A DNA stretch of 64,000 nucleotides from assembly GCA_000004985.1 (NCBI GenBank), contig GG738921.1; one strand, 5' to 3'. This DNA comes from Naegleria gruberi (lineage: Eukaryota). Both the position numbers and the translations under genes were made by a program. Positions 9,835 through 61,375 of the stretch are shown one piece after another; positions within the stretch are counted from its first letter, which is position 1, and each line of letters opens with the position of its first letter. The notes under the pieces were generated by a model, which saw nothing but the letters and a program-made list of their open reading frames with translations, did not search any database and had not been told where the DNA came from.

Positions 9835-12125
9835 TCAATAAAAAAAAAATTCTAATACTGTTTCACCATATTCGTTAAGCATTTCCAATTTAAAATCAGA
9901 ATCATTCTTTAACAAATCATCTGCAAAATATAATGCATACTCATCATATTGAGCTACCTCTTTCATGAATGACTTGTCTATTTTGAATGACACATCAATA
10001 TATTCCAATACTAAAACGTTTTGAATGACTGCTTCAATTACAATTTCCTTATCCATCTGTAATGATGAATCAAGAGAAAATAATACGAATCCATCATTTT
10101 GCAATGCAATCTTTACAATTTCTCTATCTTTTTGGAATTTTGGATCAACGTATTCCAATGCTGCTCCATCAATTTCAACCAATTGTAAAACAAAATCTCT
10201 ATCTTTCTTCCAAGATTCGTCTACATATGTCAATGCATGCACATTATTGCCTACTGCTGCTTTGATAATGTCTGGATCATTTTTGAAATCTTCACTCACA
10301 TATTCCAATGCTGTTCCCTTCTGTTTAACTGTTTCTAAAATGAATTTCTTATCATTCCTTATTAATTCATCGGCTTGTTGAATAGATGGTCGAAACTTCT
10401 TAATAACCTCTAATACAAGCTCCTTATCATTTTTATAATAATTTGGAGCTCTTGGTAAGATGGAAGCAGAATATAACTCCTCAATAAAATCATTCTGTGC
10501 AAACTCATTGATTGACTTCACTAGTGTATCTCTTGAAGTTTCGAATATTTCCTCAATGTTTTCAGTGAAATCGTTCTCACAGAAATCTAGATTGGATAGT
10601 GCTATTTGAAGAGCTTCCTCAACATGACTAAATTGTTTCATGATAAATTCTCTATTCCTTATTTTTTTCAATTCAATTCCTAGTTGTTCAATAACTTTTA
10701 AATTATTTTCAATATCATTCTTCAAAGATTCAACACAAGCCTGAAGCGATAATTTAAATCTTTCAACTGTCAATTGAATAATTTGTTCATCATGTTTAAG
10801 AGATGAATCTATTTCGAAATAGGCATTAGCATTCTGTTGAATAGCTGTTTCGATTATTTCTCTATCCTTCTTAAATGTAGCATTATTAACATAGGCAAGA
10901 GACGTTCCATCCTCTCTGACTGCTTCTAATACTATTTCTCTATCTATTTCATTAATATATTTCAATAAATATCCTTTCCTGTTAACAACTTGCATTATGA
11001 ATTGTCTATCCATTCTCAACAATTCATTATTTTCAAATGGATTGCATTTAAAATAAACATCACTAAATGAAAGGCATGCCAATATAATATCTCTATTATG
11101 AGTAAAATTATCATTAATACCTATTGGATATGATTTAAAAAAATCTGATGATAATCCATTTGTCTTGAATATTCTACTCAATATTTCACTTGCATTTGGC
11201 CTCATTTCATAATCGTCATTCAACATGGAAATTAGGATTTTGAAAAATTCAGTCCAACCTTCAATATCATCATCCAAATTAGCTTCCTTAATTATTTGTG
11301 AAATATTATTATTTTCCATGTGAATGATTAAATATTGATATATATCATCTAAATGATGTTGAATATCTAGGGATTCATTTTTTGGAAATATTACATTTAA
11401 TAATGATCTACCTAAACTCCAAATATCACTCCTGAAAGATATTAAACCTTGATTTAGGCATTCAGGTGCAATAAATCCAAAAGTCCCACATATGAAAGAA
11501 GAGGAAGAAGAACTCTCTGATAAATTTGATGGGTTTGAATCAACATCTTGAACTTTTGTAACAGTGACACCAATTCTATCAGAAGGTATTGGACATGCAT
11601 TCTCTCTAACACTTCCCAAATCTCCAATAATTGTCTCTATATGGAGAATATTATCCTCTTTTTTGGTAATTATTGTTTCTTGGAGGAATAAATTGTCTGG
11701 TTTGATATCACAATGAATTAAATTGTTATCATGAAGAGATTTTAGTCCATGACTGGTTTTAATTAGAATTTGAAGTAAATTTCCCAAATAGAGTTTAGGT
11801 TTCAAATTTCTATAATTAGACAAATTAATACCTCTATATTTGGAAATAATAATAGCTTCATTTCCATTCTTTTCAGTGATTTCATAAGTTAATATATTTG
11901 CATTGTGCATTTGTTTAGCTTTCATATTATGTTCAATTTCTCCATAATTATAAATTTAATTTTAACAACATAATGACCATTTAAATTTACATCGGTTCCA
12001 ATATATTTAGATTTGAATACAATAATACCGTCATTTCTTGCAAGTTTTAATGGTTCTTCAATTTGTAGTGCCAAGTGTTGGATGGTGATCTCCGATTTTG
12101 TGTGAATGGTTGAAATTAAACTCAT
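9835..12125 (-). CDS. Protein kinase fused to DUF4116 repeat arrays. There is a frame break inside the kinase N-lobe.
   Basis: The 5' ORF (12125-11922) ends ...NGHYVVKIKF, a VAIK-like lysine. The 696-aa ORF carries HCDIKPDNLFL, IGDLGS (DFG-like) and GTFGFIAPE. It continues with many repeats of the DUF4116 type (DREIVLEAVREDGTSLAYVNNATFKKD, DPDIIKAAVGNNVHALTYVDESWKKD, DREIVKIALQNDGFVLFSLDSSLQMD ...). The two ORFs overlap in different frames at about 11922-11960. Confidence 0.75.
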
Positions 12126-13346: not shown

Positions 13347-13693
13347 TATTGAATTATTTTTTAACAATTTGAAATAATTTGAGATTCGATTAGAATTAAA
13401 CTATTTAAGATAATTATCTTGGTGGATGTTATATGGAGTTTTGCGCATGTGGAATTATATTGGAATCTATTTGGCATTCAAGAAAAGTGTGTAACGGAGT
13501 TAAATTACAGTGACCATACTTATTGAGTATGAGATACAATGTTCCCATAGCTGAGGATTCGTGTATTAATATATCCATTACTGTTCGTTCTTATTCTCTC
13601 ACTTCTTTTATTAATAAACTACTAGAAATGTACATTTCTATTATTGAACCGATGTGAATGAATAAACAAAGAAATATTTCATAGTGAATGTAT

Positions 13694-13765
13694 TCCCGTG
13701 TAGTCCAATGGCTAGGATACCTGGCTTTCACCCAGGAGGTCCGGGTTCAATTCCCGGCATGGGAG
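13694..13765 (+). tRNA. tRNA-Glu(UUC): tRNA-Glu (anticodon UUC)
   Basis: 72 nt: TCCCGTG TA GTCC AATGGCTA GGAT A CCTGG CTTTCAC CCAGG AGGT CCGGG TTCAATT CCCGG CATGGGA G. The cloverleaf folds with one G-U pair in the acceptor stem, A and B boxes are present, and T4 runs lie downstream. Confidence 0.92.
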
Positions 13766-13840
13766 GATAATTTTACATTTTCAAATGCGGAATAGTTTGG
13801 TTATCATCTCCGGATTTATTTCTGAAACACTGCAAAAAAA

Positions 13841-16716
13841 ATGGCAAACTCCTTTTCTTTCATCTTGTTTGCCATCTTGGTTTTGAATTGGGCCTTGTTA
13901 GCCAATTGTAATTTGACTTTTTCACAACAAACATTCAACACTCTCCTCAACTCAACCCAAACTTCAACTCTATCACTGACAATGTACATGGGAGGTGGAA
14001 CAACCATCAAAAACAGTAACAACAGCACATGTGGAATGTCTGTGGATAATCCATGTACAAACTTTAATCAATTATTATTAACTTTTAATTGGACACTCTT
14101 TAGTCAATTTGAGAATTTCACAAAAGCAACATCGGCAGGTGAAAGAAACGTTCACTTGAAGATACTGATACTTCCAGATGGCAGTATTTTCTGTCCTATC
14201 AATCCAGTTAATTTATCTCCTTCAATGAATTATCATTTAGAATTTACGAAACTAGTCGAATCATCAACAATAACACCCATCTTGACCTGCCTCAACACAC
14301 AAGATGGAAATGGCATTTCCATTCCTNNNNNNNNNNNNNNNNNNNNNNNNNNNNNNNNNNNNNNNNNNNNNNNNNNNNNNNNNNNNNNNNNNNNNNNNNN
14401 NNNNNNNNNNNNNNNNNNNNNNNNNNNNNNNNNNNNNNNNNNNNNNNNNNNNNNNNNNNNNNNNNNNNNNNNNNNNNNNNNNNNNNNNNNNNNNNNNNNN
14501 NNNNNNNNNNNNNNNNNNNNNNNNNNNNNNNNNNNNNNNNNNNNNNNNNNNNNNNNNNNNNNNNNNNNNNNNNNNNNNNNNNNNNNNNNNNNNNNNNNNN
14601 NNNNNNNNNNNNNNNNNNNNNNNNNNNNNNNNNNNNNNNNNNNNNNNNNNNNNNNNNNNNNNNNNNNNNNNNNNNNNNNNNNNNNNNNNNNNNNNNNNNN
14701 NNNNNNNNNNNNNNNNNNNNNNNNNNNNNNNNNNNNNNNNNNNNNNNNNNNNNNNNNNNNNNNNNNNNNNNNNNNNNNNNNNNNNNNNNNNNNNNNNNNN
14801 NNNNNNNNNNNNNNNNNNNNNNNNNNNNNNNNNNNNNNNNNNNNNNNNNNNNNNNNNNNNNNNNNNNNNNNNNNNNNNNNNNNNNNNNNNNNNNNNNNNN
14901 NNNNNNNNNNNNNNNNNNNNNNNNNNNNNNNNNNNNNNNNNNNNNNNNNNNNNNNNNNNNNNNNNNNNNNNNNNNNNNNNNNNNNNNNNNNNNNNNNNNN
15001 NNNNNNNNNNNNNNNNNNNNNNNNNNNNNNNNNNNNNNNNNNNNNNNNNNNNNNNNNNNNNNNNNNNNNNNNNNNNNNNNNNNNNNNNNNNNNNNNNNNN
15101 NNNNNNNNNNNNNNNNNNNNNNNNNNNNNNNNNNNNNNNNNNNNNNNNNNNNNNNNNNNNNNNNNNNNNNNNNNNNNNNNNNNNNNNNNNNNNNNNNNNN
15201 NNNNNNNNNNNNNNNNNNNNNNNNNNNNNNNNNNNNNNNNNNNNNNNNNNNNNNNNNNNNNNNNNNNNNNNNNNNNNNNNNNNNNNNNNNNNNNNNNNNN
15301 NNNNNNNNNNNNNNNNNNNNNNNNNNNNNNNNNNNNNNNNNNNNNNNNNNNNNNNNNNNNNNNNNNNNNNNNNNNNNNNNNNNNNNNNNNNNNNNNNNNN
15401 NNNNNNNNNNNNNNNNNNNNNNNNNNNNNNNNNNNNNNNNNNNNNNNNNNNNNNNNNNNNNNNNNNNNNNNNNNNNNNNNNNNNNNNNNNNNNNNNNNNN
15501 NNNNNNNNNNNNNNNNNNNNTTGGAATAGCATTAGGTTTTGGAATATTCTTTGTGTGGAAAATTGTAAAGAAATTGAGAAAACTGAAAAGTAAGGAGAAG
15601 GCAGAGAAACAAATTGAAGAAAAACTTTTAGACAAGCGACTTATTTTCAATATGAATGACGAGGAGGATGAATATTATGAGGGCTCCACACCAAATATTG
15701 AAAGAAGCAAATCATCTTATGGGAAAGTATCTGAAAAGGAGTTAGTTTCTTCATTGATTGACAGTGAAAAGAAGAAATCAAAACATTCTTTCAGTTTTTC
15801 ATCCTCTTACATTATTCCAATTGAAGACATATCAATTATTAAAAAGATTGGAGAAGGAGGCGCAGCTAATGTATATTATGGTACATGGACCAATATTAAA
15901 GTGGCTATCAAGTCACTCAAGATTGACAGTTTTGATGATGATTTTGAGAATGAAGCAGCCATCCTCAGTTTAATTAGACATCCAAACATTCTGACATTCT
16001 ATGGAGTATGTTTGACTGATAAGAGTCGATATATTGTGACTGAATATATGGAAAATGGCTCTCTAGACAGGTATATATTTTTGAATAAGAACAGAGCATT
16101 GAATATTGACCTATTCAAATCAAATATTGGAATTTTGTGTGGAATTGTGGATGGTATGCAATATTTACACTCTCTTAAACCTTCAATTATTCACAGAGAT
16201 TTGAAATCGAGTAATATATTGTTGGACGAAAGAAATACTCCAAAAGTTTCTGATTTTGGTCTTGTTAAAGTATTGGGAAACAATACAATCAGTCAAATTA
16301 CAAAAGGAATTGGTACAGTGTATTATTTAGCTCCAGAAACATTCATTGCTGAACATCAAATTGAAAATAAGGAAGAGGCAACCAAGTTGGACATTTACAG
16401 TTTTGCAATAATCATGTGGGAATTATTCTTTCGAATGAGTCCTTATCATCATGTGAAAAATCCATTCAAAGTGCCTCAAATGGTTGTCAATGGAGAAAGA
16501 CCTCAAATTCCCTTCAATATTGAAAATGATACGGAAATCAAAGAATGGCTTTCAATTCAAGCATTGGAAATTTCATCGTCTGACAATTCTTTCATTAATG
16601 GTATTAAGAAATACTTCTCACTCATTCTCCAATGTTGGAATCAAAATCCATTACAAAGACCTACATTCCTGACAATTAGAAGAGAATTGGATGAGATTTA
16701 CAATCTAATCGGTTGA
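13841..16716 (+). CDS. Receptor-like TKL-family Ser/Thr kinase (signal peptide, ectodomain, TM, kinase), interrupted by an assembly gap
   Basis: ATG at 13841 follows an A-run. The start MANSFSFILFAILVLNWALLANC is signal-peptide-like, and the ectodomain is rich in N-glycosylation sites up to the gap. After the gap the frame from 15523 reads GIALGFGIFFVW (TM) then KIVKKLRKLK, followed by a kinase domain with IGEGGAANVYYG, VAIKSLK, HRDLKSSNILLD, SDFGL and YYLAPE, to the stop at 16716. Confidence 0.8.
14327..15520. other. Assembly gap (1194 N)
   Basis: A run of N in the sequence. It lies inside the receptor-kinase gene. Confidence 1.
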
Positions 16717-18293: not shown

Positions 18294-21200
18294 TCATTCC
18301 TCTTCTGCTTCTTCTCTATTGTATCCAAATGGATGACAAGTTTTTCTACTCATTAAGGCAAGACAACAATTTACAACATATTCAAAGTAAGGCTTTCCAT
18401 CTACATGGATTAGTTTGGGTTGATAGTAGGCTCTTTGTACTGCATTCCTTCCTGAACTTGCAAGTGAATGAAATGTATTTTTGAAAACAAAGAATGATTC
18501 TGTGTGGAAATCAGAATTTGCAAATATTGCTTTAACTTTGATTGATTCCAATTCGTTTTCTTTGTCATTGTAATCAAATGAACATAGATATAGGTATAAT
18601 GATGAGTTTTCTCTAAAATCCTTAACCTCTGTTAATTATCGCGTAGAGAAATACAGTGTTTGTAACTAATTTCATAAAACTACTTACTATTGGCAACACC
18701 CAAGTGATTGAAACAAGCTGAAAACTTGGCTCCAAATGCTGTGAACTTATCTGAATAACAACATCTATCAATATTATCAGGACTAACACGAAATGTCAAA
18801 GTATGGATGGATAATGGAAACTCTGTTGCCCATCTATGAACAATAGGAGGATAATTAGTTGAGGATGATTCCTTTCTTCCAACATGGAACATTTCAATAT
18901 TATTGAAAGGTTTGAATGGTTCTTCCTCAACTTTCTTCATCCCAACCACAAATTTAAACTTGAGAAAATCATCGTCATCTGTTGAGTAAGCGGCAATATG
19001 GGTCTTATCAAGAAATATTCCATAAGATGCTTTAGGCATAATGAATTTTCTACTGTGAACAAGATAGGATTGAGGTTCTAGATCAAAATTACAAATAAAA
19101 AAGTCGAGTCTTATTCTATCAAATACCTGTTGCTTATTCTCTACTGGAATTGTGGAATTTAGTGTTAAAAATACTGTAGAATTGCCCAAACATTCATCTT
19201 CATCATCTGTTTCCGATTAGACAATTAGAAAATTAATAAAACGTAACATACCTGGCAGAAGCTCCACAACCCACTCGTGTCCAAACTGTATGAAAGGTTC
19301 AGAATAATAGCTAGTATTAAAAGGGCCAGTTTTTGGTACCTTAACATCTGCAATATGAATGGTATAATCTTTTTTCTGTGGTGGAATATTTTCCTGCACA
19401 AATTGGAAAAGGTCTTCTCCTATAGGTTTCAATATTGGCTTAATTTTTGTTTCTGTGAACTCTGTATCTATTTTTGCTTTCTTTTCTGCAATAAGTTCTA
19501 AGGTTTTCTTAGAAGATTTGAAAAATTCATTGGACATAACTAGGTTGATAAAGTCCAAAATGCTATCATTTTGTGGGAAATGATCCACTACTGCAATAAC
19601 AGTATTAATAATAACATGTCCAGAAAAATTACAAATTTCTTGTTTCCCATCAATAAACTGATGTAAAACTCTACTGATCATCTTTTGTGTGCAATTTTGA
19701 ATATTATCATATATCAAACATTGTATGATACACTCAAAACAATTGAAAAAACTGGTGAACCTCCCTAAATCCATTAAAATATTAGCAACAACACAAAATT
19801 CAGTTTGAGATAATATTTTAGGTATTAACTTTTCCAGATCGTGAATATTATTTTCCTCAAATATAATTTTTCCTTCTTTCCATAGTACATCCAAAAGATC
19901 AAATATTCCATAAAAGTCCACACTAGTTTCATCTTGAAAAGCAGTCAGAAAAAGTTTACAAATTTCGGCTTTCGAAATGTCTAAAAAAACATAGCTGGAT
20001 AGTTGTTCAATAGCTAAACATGCATCTTTCATTTCTCTTAAATATATTCTTTCTCTTACATAGGAAAGACATTGATCAATATCATTATAATCAATTGTTG
20101 GGTAAATCCGTTTTGTGCTTAGTGGTTCTTCTTTCATTATAACGGTAACCCTGTTAACTTCTTGTTCAAAAAGAGAATAATCTGCGCTCAATACTCTAGA
20201 GTCAAAGCATTCCAACAGTAAAACTCTACAATTGGTGAATTGTCTGAAATATTGTGTCGATTCTTGTGTAAGGCCGTCATTGTACTCTATTTTTAGGATA
20301 TCCAACTCATCAGATAGGGGAATAATATCCTTAATAAATTCATCTTGAATCTTACACCTTGAAAACACTAATTCTTTTAAAATTTTTGTAGAGAGTAGCC
20401 AGTCTTTGAATCCAATTTCTGCTCCAGTAATCTCTCCGACAAAAGAAAGATTAGTAATGTTACTTGGAAAAGTGCACTCTTGTAAGTTAGTAACTTGCTC
20501 ACCAAAGCATACTTTCAATGTTGTCAAATTCTTGAATTCTCCAAGATATTTTAGATATTCAACATTCTCGTTGGTTACCCTTACATTAAGAACCTTTAGA
20601 GAACTCCTAGGTAAATGAGGAATAACTGAAGCTTCAATGGCCTCACCTAAAACTTCTTCCAGTTTGCAATTTACTATTGCTTGGATATTTTGATGAATAA
20701 TTTTATCTTCGAACTGTTCACCTTGCAGATCCAATATTTTTAAATCTTCACAGTCATGGAGAAATGAATGGTTCCTCCTCAATATCAATATAAGTATCAG
20801 TATGGTACAGCAGTTTTTCCAAATGTTGTCCTATTAAAGCCTTAACAACATTAAAACAAATTATTTCGTTAGTACCTCCATAAATTTTAAGAATTCTGAG
20901 TTGTAAACAACTTTTCAATTGTTCCAAAATATCTTCTTTTACAATTGTAAATTGAAAATTTCTAGGAAAGTCTAATGTTAATTTAGACAACTTAGAGAGA
21001 TTACAGAGACAACCTAGCAATGTATCTAACTCATATGAGGGATCATATTCATTAGTGAAAACAACATTCAATCTTTCTAATGTTCTTGAAAGGATGCTCA
21101 AATTCTTTTGGAGATTCAATATTGTTTCATCAGAAGTTGATTTCCATACCACCTTGAGCTTTTTCAAATGGGAGAATGAATTAGATGAAAATACTGAAAA

Positions 21201-49888: not shown

Positions 49889-51670
49889 TTATTGGAATGG
49901 TTCCAATTCAATTTCGAAAACTGAAACTGGTGTCTTCAAACCAAAGTTAGAAGCAACTTCTGGATGAATAATACCGAAAATACCAATCTTCTTGCCCTTG
50001 TAGAAGATATCAGCTTGTCTACCTGGCAAGAAGCTAATATCGTTAGATGGGAAAATTGAGAAACAGTGCTTATCAACAGATTGGCTATGTTCAACTTCGA
50101 ATGGAACAGCTAAAACTTCCATAACTCTGTCAACCAAACCGTGAATCAGTTCCAAACCCGATGTAGCAGATGAGAAGAGAGCAGCAAGTCTTCTATTATT
50201 CTTAGCACCAACATCCTTAGAATCATCAACTAAAATAACATCACCACATTCGAACAATTTGATTGGCAATGGCAATGACTTGTTGCTTTGCAAGGTCTTT
50301 AACAAACCTGGAATCAAACTAATTCTAGCAGTCTTGAATTCGAATGGACATGGTTCAGCAACAGCAATAGCAGTCTTACCATCGTTGACTCTGTTCATGT
50401 ATTTAAAGTTTTCTTCATCGTTACAGAGAATCAAGGACAAAACTTCAGTATATCCTGACATGGCGAGTTCAAGACGCACCATTTCTGACAATTGGTTCAA
50501 TTCATTTTCCTTACCAACAGTTGAAGACTTTGGGAAAGTAATTGGGATATTGTTGTAACCATGAGCAATGGCAACATCTTCCATAATATCACAAGCATGT
50601 AAAACGTCTGAACGAGTTGGTGGAGCAAGAACTCTCAATTCATTATTTTGAGTGACAGTAGCATTCAATTGCATCTTTGTCAAAATTTCTGCAATTTGTT
50701 GAGCAGATAAATTCAAACCAATTCTACTATTAATATAGTCGCTATTTGTAGTGAATTCAACATTATCAAGAATTGGAGTAGGTTCATCCTTTGATTGAGT
50801 CTTATCTTCATATACAATTTCAACTTGTTCAACTGTGAATGGAACAGAGCAATGTTCAGAGAACATGGTAACAACAGTATTCAAGACAACCTTAGCCTTT
50901 GTCAAATCAGTTGCAGTACATTCAATGAAAACATTCTTTGTAGACATTTTGATCTTTGAGTGATCTCCGTTAATAATTGGTGGCAAAGACAAAACTCTTC
51001 TCTTAGCATCTAAAATAACTGGATAAACTGGACTATCCTTGATAATCTTAGTGTAAGGGGACAAGTGCTTCATTTCACTTCCCTTTTTTTCAATAAAAGC
51101 GAAAAGTTCGTCAGCATCCATTAATTCAGTTCTATCCAAAGGAATGAATTTGATTTCTTTTGGTGGAAGAGCTTCATATGTGAAAGGACCTTCAATAACA
51201 TCCAAATCGTGAGTACCAATAGCAACGAGGGTTCTCTTTCTACAAATATTTTGATGAAGCTTTTCTTGTAAATCAATGAAACTATTGTAGGCATCTTCGG
51301 TGAAGGTGATATTTCTCAAGACAGCACCAACAACAAATTTACGGATTGATCCAGTTTCCTTTTTCACGTTAATCTTTAACAATTGTTTGGTTTTGGAATT
51401 ATCAATTTTATAGGTTGGAGCATCTTGACGACCGAGGAAAATGTTCAAAGCTCTGCTCAAGCCTTCTTCACAGAGTAAATCGTATCTGTTGGCTGGGATT
51501 TCAATCTTGTAGATGACTTCATCGGAGAGTTTGCTTGTATCCTTTGCAGAACCCAATTCCTTTTCCTTCATCAATCTTTCAGAGGTAACATCATCCAATT
51601 CAATACCAAAATCAAAACAAAGTTGCTCAAAATCGGCATCGGCTATAGGAGATATTTTTTTAATTTTCAT
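49889..51670 (-). CDS. FARSB: Phenylalanyl-tRNA synthetase beta subunit (cytoplasmic type)
   Basis: 593-aa ORF. DFEQLCFDFGIELDDVTSE ... YKIEIPANRYDLLCEEGLSRAL and colinear B3/4 and B5 regions are typical of eukaryotic PheRS beta. The N-terminus is about 10 aa shorter than usual, so a missed upstream start or exon is possible. Confidence 0.9.
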   Translation of the reverse strand: MKIKKISPIADADFEQLCFDFGIELDDVTSERLMKEKELGSAKDTSKLSDEVIYKIEIPANRYDLLCEEGLSRALNIFLGRQDAPTYKIDNSKTKQLLKINVKKETGSIRKFVVGAVLRNITFTEDAYNSFIDLQEKLHQNICRKRTLVAIGTHDLDVIEGPFTYEALPPKEIKFIPLDRTELMDADELFAFIEKKGSEMKHLSPYTKIIKDSPVYPVILDAKRRVLSLPPIINGDHSKIKMSTKNVFIECTATDLTKAKVVLNTVVTMFSEHCSVPFTVEQVEIVYEDKTQSKDEPTPILDNVEFTTNSDYINSRIGLNLSAQQIAEILTKMQLNATVTQNNELRVLAPPTRSDVLHACDIMEDVAIAHGYNNIPITFPKSSTVGKENELNQLSEMVRLELAMSGYTEVLSLILCNDEENFKYMNRVNDGKTAIAVAEPCPFEFKTARISLIPGLLKTLQSNKSLPLPIKLFECGDVILVDDSKDVGAKNNRRLAALFSSATSGLELIHGLVDRVMEVLAVPFEVEHSQSVDKHCFSIFPSNDISFLPGRQADIFYKGKKIGIFGIIHPEVASNFGLKTPVSVFEIELEPFQ

Positions 51671-54055: not shown

Positions 54056-54802
54056 TTATCTGAAGATGACACCACCACCGCCGCCACCACCGACAACAGC
54101 ACCACCAACTGGACCTGGACCACCAACTGGACCAACTGGACCACCTGGAATTGGACCTGGGCCACCAATTGGACCAATAGGACCACCAACTGGAGGAGGA
54201 ACACCACCAGCAAATCCAATGCCACCATCAATTCCACCAACACCCCAACCACCATAATAAGGAGCTCCATATCCAACACCAACACCATAACCACCGCCAT
54301 AACCACCTCCATAACCATAACCACCACCATAACCACCATAAATTGGAGGAGGAGGAGGAGGAGGAACACCATAACCATAACCACCGCCATATCCACCATA
54401 TCCACCATAAACTGGAGGAGCAACAACAACTGGAGGTGGAGGAGGAGGAAGATATTGTTGGAATGAGCTACCATAGTTTGAACCATAATTGCTTGGACCA
54501 GTGTAAGAGCTTCCATAAGAACTGTATGGATTTGAGTTGACACTATCTACTTGATTGAGATAGGATTGAGTATTTTGAGCATACTTGTTATAGTTGCCAC
54601 CTGAGGTTCCATAATTAGAACCAGCACCGCCATAAGAACCATAATTATTGGCATTGTTGAAGGAACCAGTAGATCCACCAAAACCACCATAGTATGGAGG
54701 AGGAACACCATAGGATTTTGTTTCAGTGTCTCCTCCTGCCAAGACAATCGCAAGGGAGCAGAGTGATAGCAATAAGCCAATAAGAATCTTTTCAGATATC
54801 AT
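54056..54802 (-). CDS. Secreted Gly/Tyr/Pro-rich structural-type protein
   Basis: The start MISEKILIGLLLSLCSLAIVLAGG is signal-peptide-like. It is followed by GGYGGYGGGYGYG, PPPPPPP and GGPIGPIGGPGP repeats. The other five ORFs reported across 53971-54780 are alternate-frame shadows of this biased sequence. Confidence 0.65.
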   Translation of the reverse strand: MISEKILIGLLLSLCSLAIVLAGGDTETKSYGVPPPYYGGFGGSTGSFNNANNYGSYGGAGSNYGTSGGNYNKYAQNTQSYLNQVDSVNSNPYSSYGSSYTGPSNYGSNYGSSFQQYLPPPPPPVVVAPPVYGGYGGYGGGYGYGVPPPPPPPIYGGYGGGYGYGGGYGGGYGVGVGYGAPYYGGWGVGGIDGGIGFAGGVPPPVGGPIGPIGGPGPIPGGPVGPVGGPGPVGGAVVGGGGGGGVIFR

Positions 54803-55077
54803 ATTTTGTTTTTTTGTTTTGATGAGTAATTAGGAAGGGAGAGAAGGGTGGAATTTATTGAATTTTTGGAGCTTGTCAACTTCATAACTAAATGTGCAAG
54901 TATCTAATAGAGGAAAATGAAATGATGGGAATGATGGACCTATAAAGTAAAATTGTGTATAAATGTTGAATTACTTAAATGGAAATGATCAGATTGTTTG
55001 GAAACAAAGTCTCATTTTGTAACAAAGCAGTTTTTAAATTCACTACAATTTAAGAAAATTTCATATCTGAATGTGAA

Positions 55078-55129
55078 GCGTCGATGGTTTAGTGGTAGAA
55101 TACGGCGGGTTCAATTCCCGGTCGACGCA
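55078..55129 (+). pseudogene. tRNA-Gly-like element lacking the entire anticodon arm (52 nt)
   Basis: GCGTCGA TG GTTTAGTGGTAGAAT AC GGC GGGTTCAATTCCCGG TCGACGC A. The acceptor stem is perfect, and the D-arm with A box and the T-arm with B box are present. About 20 nt (anticodon stem-loop) are missing between GAATAC and GGC. One mismatch closes the T stem, and a T4 run lies about 20 nt downstream. Confidence 0.7.
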
Positions 55130-55331
55130 GCAGAAAGCAATAATTTTGTTCAATTAAAGCTTTTAATGTGAATTGTTTTTACACTACAATCTAGACATAC
55201 CATACTACACGAATCTCAAATACCACATTTTCATTCTTTATATTAGAAAAGATATTAATCAAAGTTAAGACCTCATTTTTTTATTGTGTTTTGTTTTTTA
55301 AAAAATGCAAGTAATGAAAATTTAACAAACT

Positions 55332-56586
55332 TTAATTTTCCTTGTCAATCAAGGCTTGATTCACAGCCATTACCACTCTGTAACGAGCTTGATTCTTGAG
55401 AACCTTTTCAACGGCTTGAGTTACATTATCAAGAGTAGTTAATTCAATTTGTGGCTTAATATTGTGATCAGCAGCAAATTGCAACATTTCCTTCATCAAA
55501 TCGGGAGTGGCACTTGCTGAACCAACAATTGCACGATCTTTGAGGATGAGAGGAAAAGCTGATGCTTTATATATGCCAGAATCAGCTATTTAAATTGTTA
55601 TTTAATTAATTTAAATTAATAATTAATAATTAATAATAATATTAGGAAATTAAAAGTAATTAAAAGTAATTGGAATGCAAAACAAGTTAAATTACTTACG
55701 AAGTCCTAACATGACCATCTTTCCGAATGGTTTCAACATTTGGATAAACTTATCATTATCAATATCAGTGCTAACAGTATTGAGAATCATGTCAAATTTG
55801 CATGAAAGAGATTTTGCATCATTTTCTTCTGTGTGGACAAAGAATTCATCAGCTCCAAAGGATCTGCATTCCTTCTCCTTATTTGCATTTGTGGAAAGGG
55901 CTACAACATGGAATCCCATCTTTTTAGCAAATTGGAGAGCTAAATGACCTAATCCTCCCAATCCCAATACTGCTACTACAAATTCATTTCGTTTCGAATA
56001 AGGACTTTCACGATAGTAGTATAATGGTGAGTAAACTGTGGCTCCAGCACACAACAATGGACTGGCATCGACAGATTTCAACTTGTCTGGAATTGGAAAA
56101 ACAAATCTAGCATCCCAAACAACACCTGTTTGAAAACCTCCTCCAATTGGTGCCTTATCGAAAGGTAAGGTCTTGTCACACAAATTTTCGAAATGATTCT
56201 TACAAGTTGGACATTCGAAACATGAAGTGTAGTGCCATCCCATTCCAACACGATCTGATACCTTAATCTTTGTTTCCTTCTCGACTTGCTCACCAACATG
56301 ACGAACAATTCCAACAATTTCATGACCAGGAATGCAACCAACATTATGCAATGAGTGAATATCTGATTATTTAATAATATTTGATTTGGATAACTACTAT
56401 TACTATTGAAAAATACTAACCTGTATAACAAATACTACTGGCAATTACTTCGACAAAAACCTCCAAAGGACCCAAACTTTTCACTTGTTGCTTGATTGGG
56501 CGAAAGGAGAATTCCTTTCCTTCTTCCTTTTCTGCTACTGCATAACCAGAAACTTGGATTGGTGGATTGATTTCCTTGATAGACAT
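55332..56586 (-). CDS. Zinc-type alcohol dehydrogenase, cinnamyl/mannitol ADH-like (MDR; 360 aa, 3 exons)
   Basis: Exons are 56586-56421 / 56362-55700 / 55585-55332, with introns of 58 and 114 nt in phase. Motifs: CYTDIHSL, GHEIVG, the structural zinc site CFECPTCKNHFENLC, and the NAD(P) motif GLGGLGHLALQFAKKMG. Confidence 0.88.
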
Positions 56587-60178: not shown

Positions 60179-60265
60179 TCCGATGAGACGGAATCGAACC
60201 GCCGACCACAGGATGACAGTTTTTCTTGCTACAGTCCCATGCTCTACCAGCTGAGCTATCATCGG
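60179..60265 (-). tRNA. tRNA-Tyr(GUA): tRNA-Tyr (anticodon GUA) with a 14-nt intron
   Basis: The reverse complement reads CCGATGA TA GCTC AGCTGGTA GAGC A TGGGA CTGTAG [CAAGAAAAACTGTC] A TCCTG TGGTC GGCGG TTCGATT CCGTC TCATCGG A. The intron sits at the canonical 37/38 position, and a T5 terminator lies downstream. Confidence 0.92.
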
Positions 60266-60404: not shown

Positions 60405-61375
60405 ATGCCACAACATGTCCATCATCACTCCCTCTCACCTTCAAGACCAGTCGTCGTTATTGATAATGGCTCGGGAATGATTAAGGTAGGATTTTCCTGT
60501 AGTGATTCTCCCAGAGCCATATTTCCAACAATAGTAGGGCATAAAAAAGAGTCATCAGATCAAAAGAAGGAAACAACCAACAATGATCTCAATAGTATCG
60601 GATCATCATTTGTTGGAGAGATGGCAATAGCTCATCGAGAATTATTGGACATAAAAAGTCCCATGGAAAATGGAATAATTTCAAATTTTGATGATATGGA
60701 AAAGATTTGTTATCATCTCTATCCGGAGTTCTTGTCACAGAACCAAGTTAGAATCCAAAGTTGGTGAGAGAAAAAACAACAGAAATATTTTTTGAAAAGT
60801 TTAAGGCCAATCAGTGATGGGACTTTGTTCGAGTGCCAGATCAGATGGTGTTGTTTTGGATGCTGGTTATACGAAATCATATGCTGTTCCAATTCTTGAA
60901 GGAATTGCATTGCCACATGCCATTCAGGTGATGNNNNNNNNNNNNNNNNNNNNNNNNNNNNNNNNNNNNNNNNNNNNNNNNNNTTCACAAAGAGGAGGTT
61001 TGAATTGTCAGATGGAAGCAAAGTGAATTTTGGAGAGGAATTAATGTCATGTCCAGAAGCTCTATTCAACCCACAGTTAATCAAAGAAGGAGAAGGAATT
61101 CACAAGATTCTCGTCAATTCCATTTTCAATTCAAATGCAGAAATCACAAGACAACTCTTTGCCAATATTGTCCTTGTCGGTGTCTCAACAATGTTTGAAG
61201 GTTTTCCCAATCATTGAATTGGCTCCTCTCTCTGTAAAAGTGAAAATCCTTTCATTCCCCGAAAGAAAACTCTTCCTGGTTTGGAGGTTCAATTACGAGC
61301 TCTCTTTCAGAATTCCACAATATGGCCATTCACAAAAAGGAATATGAAGAAGTTGGACCTAGAATTGTAATGTAG
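60405..61375 (+). pseudogene. Actin-related protein gene with an in-frame stop, at least 4 frame changes and an internal gap (probable pseudogene)
   Basis: Actin-colinear pieces lie in different frames: VVIDNGSGMIKVGF ... FPTIVG (from 60405); VLVTEPS*NPKLVREKTTEIFFEKF (TAG at 60749-60751); DGVVLDAGYTKSYAVPILEGIALPHAI; [gap]; FELSDGSKVNFGEELMSCPEALFNP ... LVGVSTMFEGF; [18 protein letters not shown]; [33 protein letters not shown]. Confidence 0.6.
60934..60983. other. Assembly gap (50 N)
   Basis: A run of N inside the actin-related locus. Confidence 1.

Follow-up and report, generated by a model that had tools for sequence, protein, structure and literature searches.

Genomic setting and anatomy of the locus

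The stretch of DNA analysed here (the window, 64 kb in length) is, judging from its sequence, nuclear DNA of Naegleria gruberi. The ORF for PheRS-beta (49892-51670, minus strand) is 100% identical to a N. gruberi protein, with the next-best matches in N. fowleri (72%) and Willaertia magna (67%), and the window as a whole carries long, intron-poor ORFs at about 33% G+C. Two runs of N, at 14327-15520 (1194 bases) and 60934-60983 (50 bases), are scaffold gaps and mark the assembly as a draft. An apparent G+C content of 13.5% in the composition profile is due to the first of these gaps. Two intact tRNA genes are present within the window, tRNA-Glu(TTC) at 13693-13766 on the plus strand and an intron-containing tRNA-Tyr(GTA) at 60179-60265 on the minus strand, the latter scoring 54.8 bits with Rfam and being missed by ARAGORN. 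Weak, sub-threshold matches to the C/D-box snoRNA models snoR79 (27.7 bits against 80) and sR11 (26.7 bits against 39), located at 19154-19214 and 9895-9951 on the minus strand, are probably chance matches.

A third tRNA-like locus is formed by a 52-mer, GCGTCGATGGTTTAGTGGTAGAATACGGCGGGTTCAATTCCCGGTCGACGCA, which lies at 55078-55129 on the plus strand, the position given for it in an initial annotation of this DNA. The 52-mer is intergenic. It is found 276 bp upstream of a divergent ORF of the Gly/Pro-rich secreted type (54056-54802, minus strand). On its other side a convergent ADH-like gene, whose last exon occupies 55332-55499, has its stop codon 203 bp away. Ten small ORFs around the locus, one of them reading through the 52-mer, gave no match in the protein collection. 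The neighboring ADH/cinnamyl-alcohol-dehydrogenase-like gene is composed of two segments on the minus strand, 55332-55499 and 55692-56351, separated by an apparent intron. It has no 100% N. gruberi protein match in the database, the top N. gruberi match being a 74% paralogue, and the same ORF is carried by a metagenome contig (L037) that is 99.4% identical at the DNA level. This gene may be unannotated or a pseudogene.

A functional tRNA has a 7-bp acceptor stem with a discriminator base, an anticodon arm bearing an anticodon, and a 5-bp T stem closed by a 7-nt loop. Of these, the 52-mer retains the first in full: the 5' strand GCGTCGA (55078-55084) forms seven Watson-Crick pairs with TCGACGC (55122-55128), both in the Rfam alignment and in the minimum free energy (MFE) fold, and is followed by a discriminator A at 55129. 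The A box, TGGTTTAGTGG, lies within the D arm at 55085-55095, and the D stem GTTT/GAAT (55087-55090 with 55098-55101) belongs to the same D arm that is found in 40 full-length metagenomic tRNA-Gly genes. The B box, GGTTCAATTCC, is located at 55108-55118. Both boxes fit their consensus sequences and are identical to the boxes of intact relatives, and the motif GGTTCRANTCC occurs in the window only at the three tRNA or tRNA-like loci. The perfect acceptor stem and the A box were therefore described correctly at the outset, as was the B box. The T arm, also described as intact, has kept its loop TTCAATT, while its stem (residual arm at 55106-55120) is reduced to four base pairs, CGGG/CCCG, beneath an outer G.G mismatch between 55105 and 55121 (49:65 in tRNA numbering). 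There is no anticodon arm with an anticodon, as seen in the Rfam alignment, in the ARAGORN output and in the comparison with a 71-nt relative described below. Because it has no anticodon, a product of the 52-mer could not decode. Downstream of the 52-mer a T4 run first appears at 55144-55147 on the plus strand and may serve as a Pol III terminator. It begins 15 nt past the 3' end, not about 20 nt as first estimated, and the corresponding distances are 5-6 nt for tRNA-Glu and 4 nt for tRNA-Tyr.

In a permissive Infernal scan (e-value mode) the 52-mer aligned end-to-end to the tRNA model RF00005 with 31.5 bits, against a gathering score of 29. This is a marginal value compared with the 67 bits of the intact tRNA-Glu and the 54.8 bits of the intact tRNA-Tyr. 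In the alignment all 17 positions of the anticodon arm are deleted and the outer pair of the T stem is marked as non-canonical. Neither ARAGORN nor the default Rfam gathering scan with its filters called the 52-mer. A match to the Plastid-ycf2 model on the minus strand (24.9 bits against 65.7) was rejected as merely the tRNA-like shape read in reverse. Chance resemblance to a tRNA was likewise rejected, since each half of the 52-mer is unique in the window where 0 occurrences are expected by chance, and since the 52-mer is identical at 52 of 52 positions to a real tRNA-Gly(GCC).

Relatives of the 52-mer and the missing 19 nt

The metagenome collection was scanned for the D-arm and T-arm sequences with 0 to 30 free bases between them, a pattern that catches truncated as well as full-length forms. 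The scan returned 40 matches in 32 contigs. In every one the spacer was 24 nt, so that all are full-length tRNA-Gly genes. One of these, at positions 207-277 of contig L023, is a 71-nt tRNA-Gly(GCC) as called by ARAGORN, and it is identical in sequence to the 52-mer in the acceptor stem and discriminator as well as in the D and T arms. For a BTB-domain ORF beside this tRNA gene, the only relatives with names are proteins of N. fowleri and N. lovaniensis (43%), for which reason the contig is assigned to a Naegleria-related organism; N. gruberi itself is an unlikely source.

Removal of one contiguous block of 19 nt from this 71-mer yields the 52-mer exactly, with 52 of 52 remaining nucleotides identical, the parent sequence in this comparison coming from the relative's contig and not from N. 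gruberi. The 52-mer is thus a derivative of the Naegleria-type tRNA-Gly(GCC) family, in agreement with the tRNA-Gly origin first assigned to it. Three placements of the deletion in the 71-mer (positions 29-47, 30-48 and 31-49) are equivalent, because a CG dinucleotide is present at both ends and constitutes a 2-nt microhomology. In the 52-mer the junction accordingly falls after 55105, 55106 or 55107. The deleted form reads GTAGAATACGGCGGGTTCAATT across the junction, and the undeleted full-length form reads ...ACGGCGTTGCCATCGCCGTGACCCGGGTTC...

The deletion has taken away the anticodon loop, TTGCCAT, together with the anticodon-stem strand on its 3' side (CGCCG). The variable loop, the 4 nt TGAC, has gone as well, and the T stem has lost its first two to three nucleotides. 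On the 5' side of the anticodon stem the strand CGGCG (55103-55107) has been kept. It carries the junction, and some of its bases take the place of those missing from the T stem, which results in the four base pairs and the G.G mismatch. The initial annotation had described a precise loss of the anticodon stem-loop, amounting to about 20 nt. A missing block does exist and measures 19 nt, but its borders do not coincide with those of the stem-loop, as one strand of the anticodon stem remains and the deletion extends into the T stem. Part by part, the 52-mer has the acceptor stem and discriminator of the Naegleria-type tRNA-Gly(GCC) genes, their D arm and 5' anticodon-stem strand, their two promoter boxes and most of their T arm, and departs from them in the absence of 19 nt including the anticodon, in a shorter T stem and in the spacing of the A and B boxes.

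The truncated form appears to be confined to this locus as far as the searches reached. No second copy of the 52-mer or of its halves is present within the 64-kb window, none of the 40 related metagenomic tRNA-Gly genes is truncated, and the viral contigs gave 0 matches. Corresponding loci in other Heterolobosea were inspected through the neighboring protein genes. Around PheRS, neither a tRNA-Gly nor a tRNA-like remnant was found in N. fowleri (L001), in Willaertia magna (L002) or in an environmental relative of Naegleria (L039). The result was the same around BTB in N. fowleri and N. lovaniensis (L035, L036) and around ADH in Willaertia (L038). This synteny comparison is uninformative, as either the neighboring genes do not keep their order or the contigs do not extend far enough. 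The metagenome contig from the 99.4% identical strain (L037) ends about 540 bp short of the 52-mer. Among the titles and abstracts returned by literature searches, none dealt with mini-tRNAs of Naegleria or with anticodon-less nuclear tRNA-like genes. A tRNA-derived SINE or other repeat was rejected as a candidate: the 52-mer is single-copy in the window, no repeat family overlies the locus, and the flanks are unlike those of the other tRNA loci except for a 23-nt motif on the 5' side.

The 5' flank and the spacing of the promoter boxes

The 23-nt motif, AAGAAA(T)ATTTCATA-N1-2-TGAATGT, stops 2-3 nt short of the 52-mer and likewise of the tRNA-Glu gene. The copy at the 52-mer, AAGAAAATTTCATATCTGAATGT, is located at 55052-55074 on the plus strand, and that at tRNA-Glu occupies the same position relative to its gene (13669-13691). 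The score of the local alignment was reached by 3 of 5000 shuffles, and the core of the motif has only these two sites in 64 kb, where 0.00 are expected. It is absent before tRNA-Tyr, and beyond its 23 nt the flanks of the 52-mer and tRNA-Glu do not align. It is possible that the motif belongs to the Pol III promoter of N. gruberi tRNA genes as an upstream element. Because it is shared with an intact tRNA gene and stands at the same distance, the locus would once have been a bona fide tRNA gene rather than the landing site of a transposed fragment.

With consensus A and B boxes and an oligo-T run shortly downstream, the 52-mer has the sequence elements of a type-2 Pol III gene. The gap between the boxes has been reduced from 31 bp in the full-length gene to 12 bp. 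In classical spacing experiments, contact with the A block was reportedly lost when the A-B gap was shortened. In S. cerevisiae tRNA genes the gap ranges from 31 to 93 bp, with 32 bp, at the short end, being the commonest value, and the two TFIIIC subcomplexes lie about 168 Å apart on the tRNA gene (PMC11724288). The 12 bp of the 52-mer fall outside this range, which is that of yeast and may not be that of Naegleria TFIIIC. With the two boxes only 12 bp apart, TFIIIC-dependent Pol III transcription of the 52-mer is probably weak or absent. By analogy with extra-TFIIIC (ETC) sites, the B box alone could bind TFIIIC.

Folding gave an MFE of -18.6 kcal/mol for the 52-mer (z = -2.2). A three-arm, cloverleaf-like fold has an energy of -15.1 kcal/mol and would account for about 0.07% of the structures in the ensemble. 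The prediction fails for the full-length tRNA too, its cloverleaf having -27.1 kcal/mol compared with an MFE of -30.5 kcal/mol. Because the same method misfolds a full-length tRNA, folding is only weakly informative and unfit as a discriminator between the explanations considered below.

Origin and possible roles of the 52-mer

We consider it likely that the 52-mer is a plain tRNA-Gly(GCC) pseudogene of the N. gruberi nuclear genome. A resident tRNA-Gly(GCC) gene would have lost 19 bp in place, by replication slippage or microhomology-mediated end joining at the 2-nt CG direct repeat, and the original-looking 5' flank and the downstream T run would have stayed at the locus. A deletion around a G+C-rich hairpin that is bounded by a direct repeat would bear the usual signature of slippage or of microhomology-mediated repair, although a microhomology of 2 nt is weak evidence for any one deletion mechanism. 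As there are 0 substitutions in 52 nt, the event would be recent, or the sequence would have been kept uniform by other means. A total of 924 tDNAs has been reported for N. gruberi (PMC2888827), and with a complement of about this size the genome should be able to lose a single Gly(GCC) copy neutrally. Copies of this kind, degenerate or with internal deletions, are common in tDNA-rich eukaryotic genomes. Like other tRNA pseudogenes, the 52-mer is a single-copy damaged derivative of a multicopy gene, with a marginal model score and missed by a standard finder. It is unlike them in being unusually clean, with one deletion, no point substitutions and an intact flank motif, and this cleanness would again point to a very recent event. 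The initial annotation had offered a decaying tRNA-Gly copy as one of two alternative readings, and the comparison with the 71-mer favors this reading.

Other accounts deal with the same features differently. The deletion could be an artefact of sequencing or assembly, the real locus being a full-length tRNA-Gly(GCC) whose 19 bp disappeared at the stage of cloning, base-calling or consensus building. Assembly collapse was the second alternative given in the initial annotation. G+C-rich hairpins are prone to deletion during cloning or sequencing, and the missing block does hold the G+C-rich anticodon hairpin; the scaffold is a draft with N gaps, and the remaining 52 nt are flawless. The nearest gap, however, is more than 5.8 kb from the locus, the flanks are unique sequence, and since any read would far exceed 71 bp, the length of the gene, a repeat collapse would not drop an internal 19 bp. 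On balance an artefact seems unlikely to us. As for a piece of a split, permuted or trans-spliced tRNA gene with its middle encoded elsewhere, disrupted tRNA genes of the split and permuted kinds exist in Archaea and some algae (PMC4033280, PMC3978253). At the present locus, however, the 5' and 3' ends are contiguous and only an internal piece is gone, which corresponds to none of the split or permuted arrangements known. A search of the 64-kb window for the missing 22-mer gave no match even when up to three mismatches were allowed, and a deletion at the CG microhomology fully explains the junction. We therefore view a split gene as extremely improbable.

The initial annotation had suggested possible transcription into a mini tRNA-like RNA. 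In this account the 52-mer would be a functional derivative, transcribed by Pol III and processed by RNase P, RNase Z and the CCA enzyme into a non-decoding RNA, or would serve only as a B-box site for TFIIIC, in the manner of an ETC site, between the divergent Gly-rich gene and the convergent ADH-like gene. What speaks for the idea is the integrity of the parts, with A box, B box, 7-bp acceptor stem and discriminator A, 5' motif and T4 run all intact. The 0 substitutions in 52 nt would also be expected from purifying selection on a functional mini-RNA. Minihelices composed of an acceptor and T arm serve as substrates of tRNA end-processing enzymes, and by analogy a transcript of the 52-mer, if made, could in principle be processed and CCA-tailed as such a minihelix. 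Sites that bind TFIIIC without Pol III are known in several eukaryotes (PMC11724288). The 52-mer is similar to ETC sites in its perfect B box, its intergenic position between Pol II genes and an A-box partnership that is probably disabled, but it keeps an A box and a terminator. The ETC class is recognized from ChIP, by occupancy in which Pol III is lacking, and the 52-mer would be a candidate for it. Among small RNAs, the mascRNA and MEN-beta RNAs (RF01684) share an acceptor/T-arm module with a reduced middle, and their model aligns end-to-end to the 52-mer. The score of this alignment is only 14.5 bits (E = 3.7), well under the gathering score of 42.5. Further, mascRNA-type RNAs are cut from the 3' end of long vertebrate Pol II transcripts, whereas no upstream transcript on the same strand is evident at the 52-mer. 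The 12-bp gap between the boxes, far under the natural 31-93 bp, the weakened T stem and the scarcity of the cloverleaf-like fold, itself a weak indicator, also speak against function, as do the lack of a second copy in the window, the 40 related genes and the viral contigs and the lack of a conserved counterpart at the heterolobosean loci examined. We found nothing in support of a transcribed mini-RNA, and a functional derivative is in our view improbable. That the deleted gene is under selection, whether as a nuclear Pol III gene for an anticodon-less, CCA-tailed mini-RNA or as a TFIIIC-bound boundary between two Pol II genes, would be more improbable still. Residual transcription or TFIIIC binding at the 52-mer is possible but unsupported.

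As a pseudogene, and so one damaged copy among about 924 tDNAs, the 52-mer matters little as it stands. It does make a point about annotation, in that it escapes standard tRNA finders and comes out of a permissive covariance scan as a marginal tRNA, and it illustrates cleanly how a tRNA gene is inactivated by a small deletion flanked by microhomology. Were the junction RNA found to be expressed, or the deleted form to be conserved, the locus would become a natural experiment on the minimum A-B spacing of type-2 promoters and would show what a tRNA body without an anticodon does in the cell.

Several observations were made on the contigs used for comparison. The order of genes around PheRS differs between N. 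fowleri and the N. gruberi window. In N. fowleri, two adjacent RNA-ligase genes of the T4 Rnl1-like and Rnl2-like Pfam families (L001, 1948-4733) are located about 5-8 kb upstream of the PheRS-beta gene. At least 19 identical copies of a protist tRNA-Gly(GCC) are present on L008, L013, L018, L025 and other Ga0182738 and PJUD01 contigs. Each of these copies follows a conserved ...(G/T)ATCAA 5' flank. The copies often occur in clusters, three of them lying within 1.5-2.6 kb. A tRNA-Gly(CCC) is found in a repeated unit on L004, L009, L017, L020, L021 and L026, with flanks conserved on both sides (upstream ...ttagtagtaatgat...ctat, downstream ...gtgtgaatttaat...cgtcacata). This unit looks like a tandem or dispersed repeat carrying a tRNA gene, and L026 contains two copies of the tRNA-Gly(CCC), 717 bp apart.
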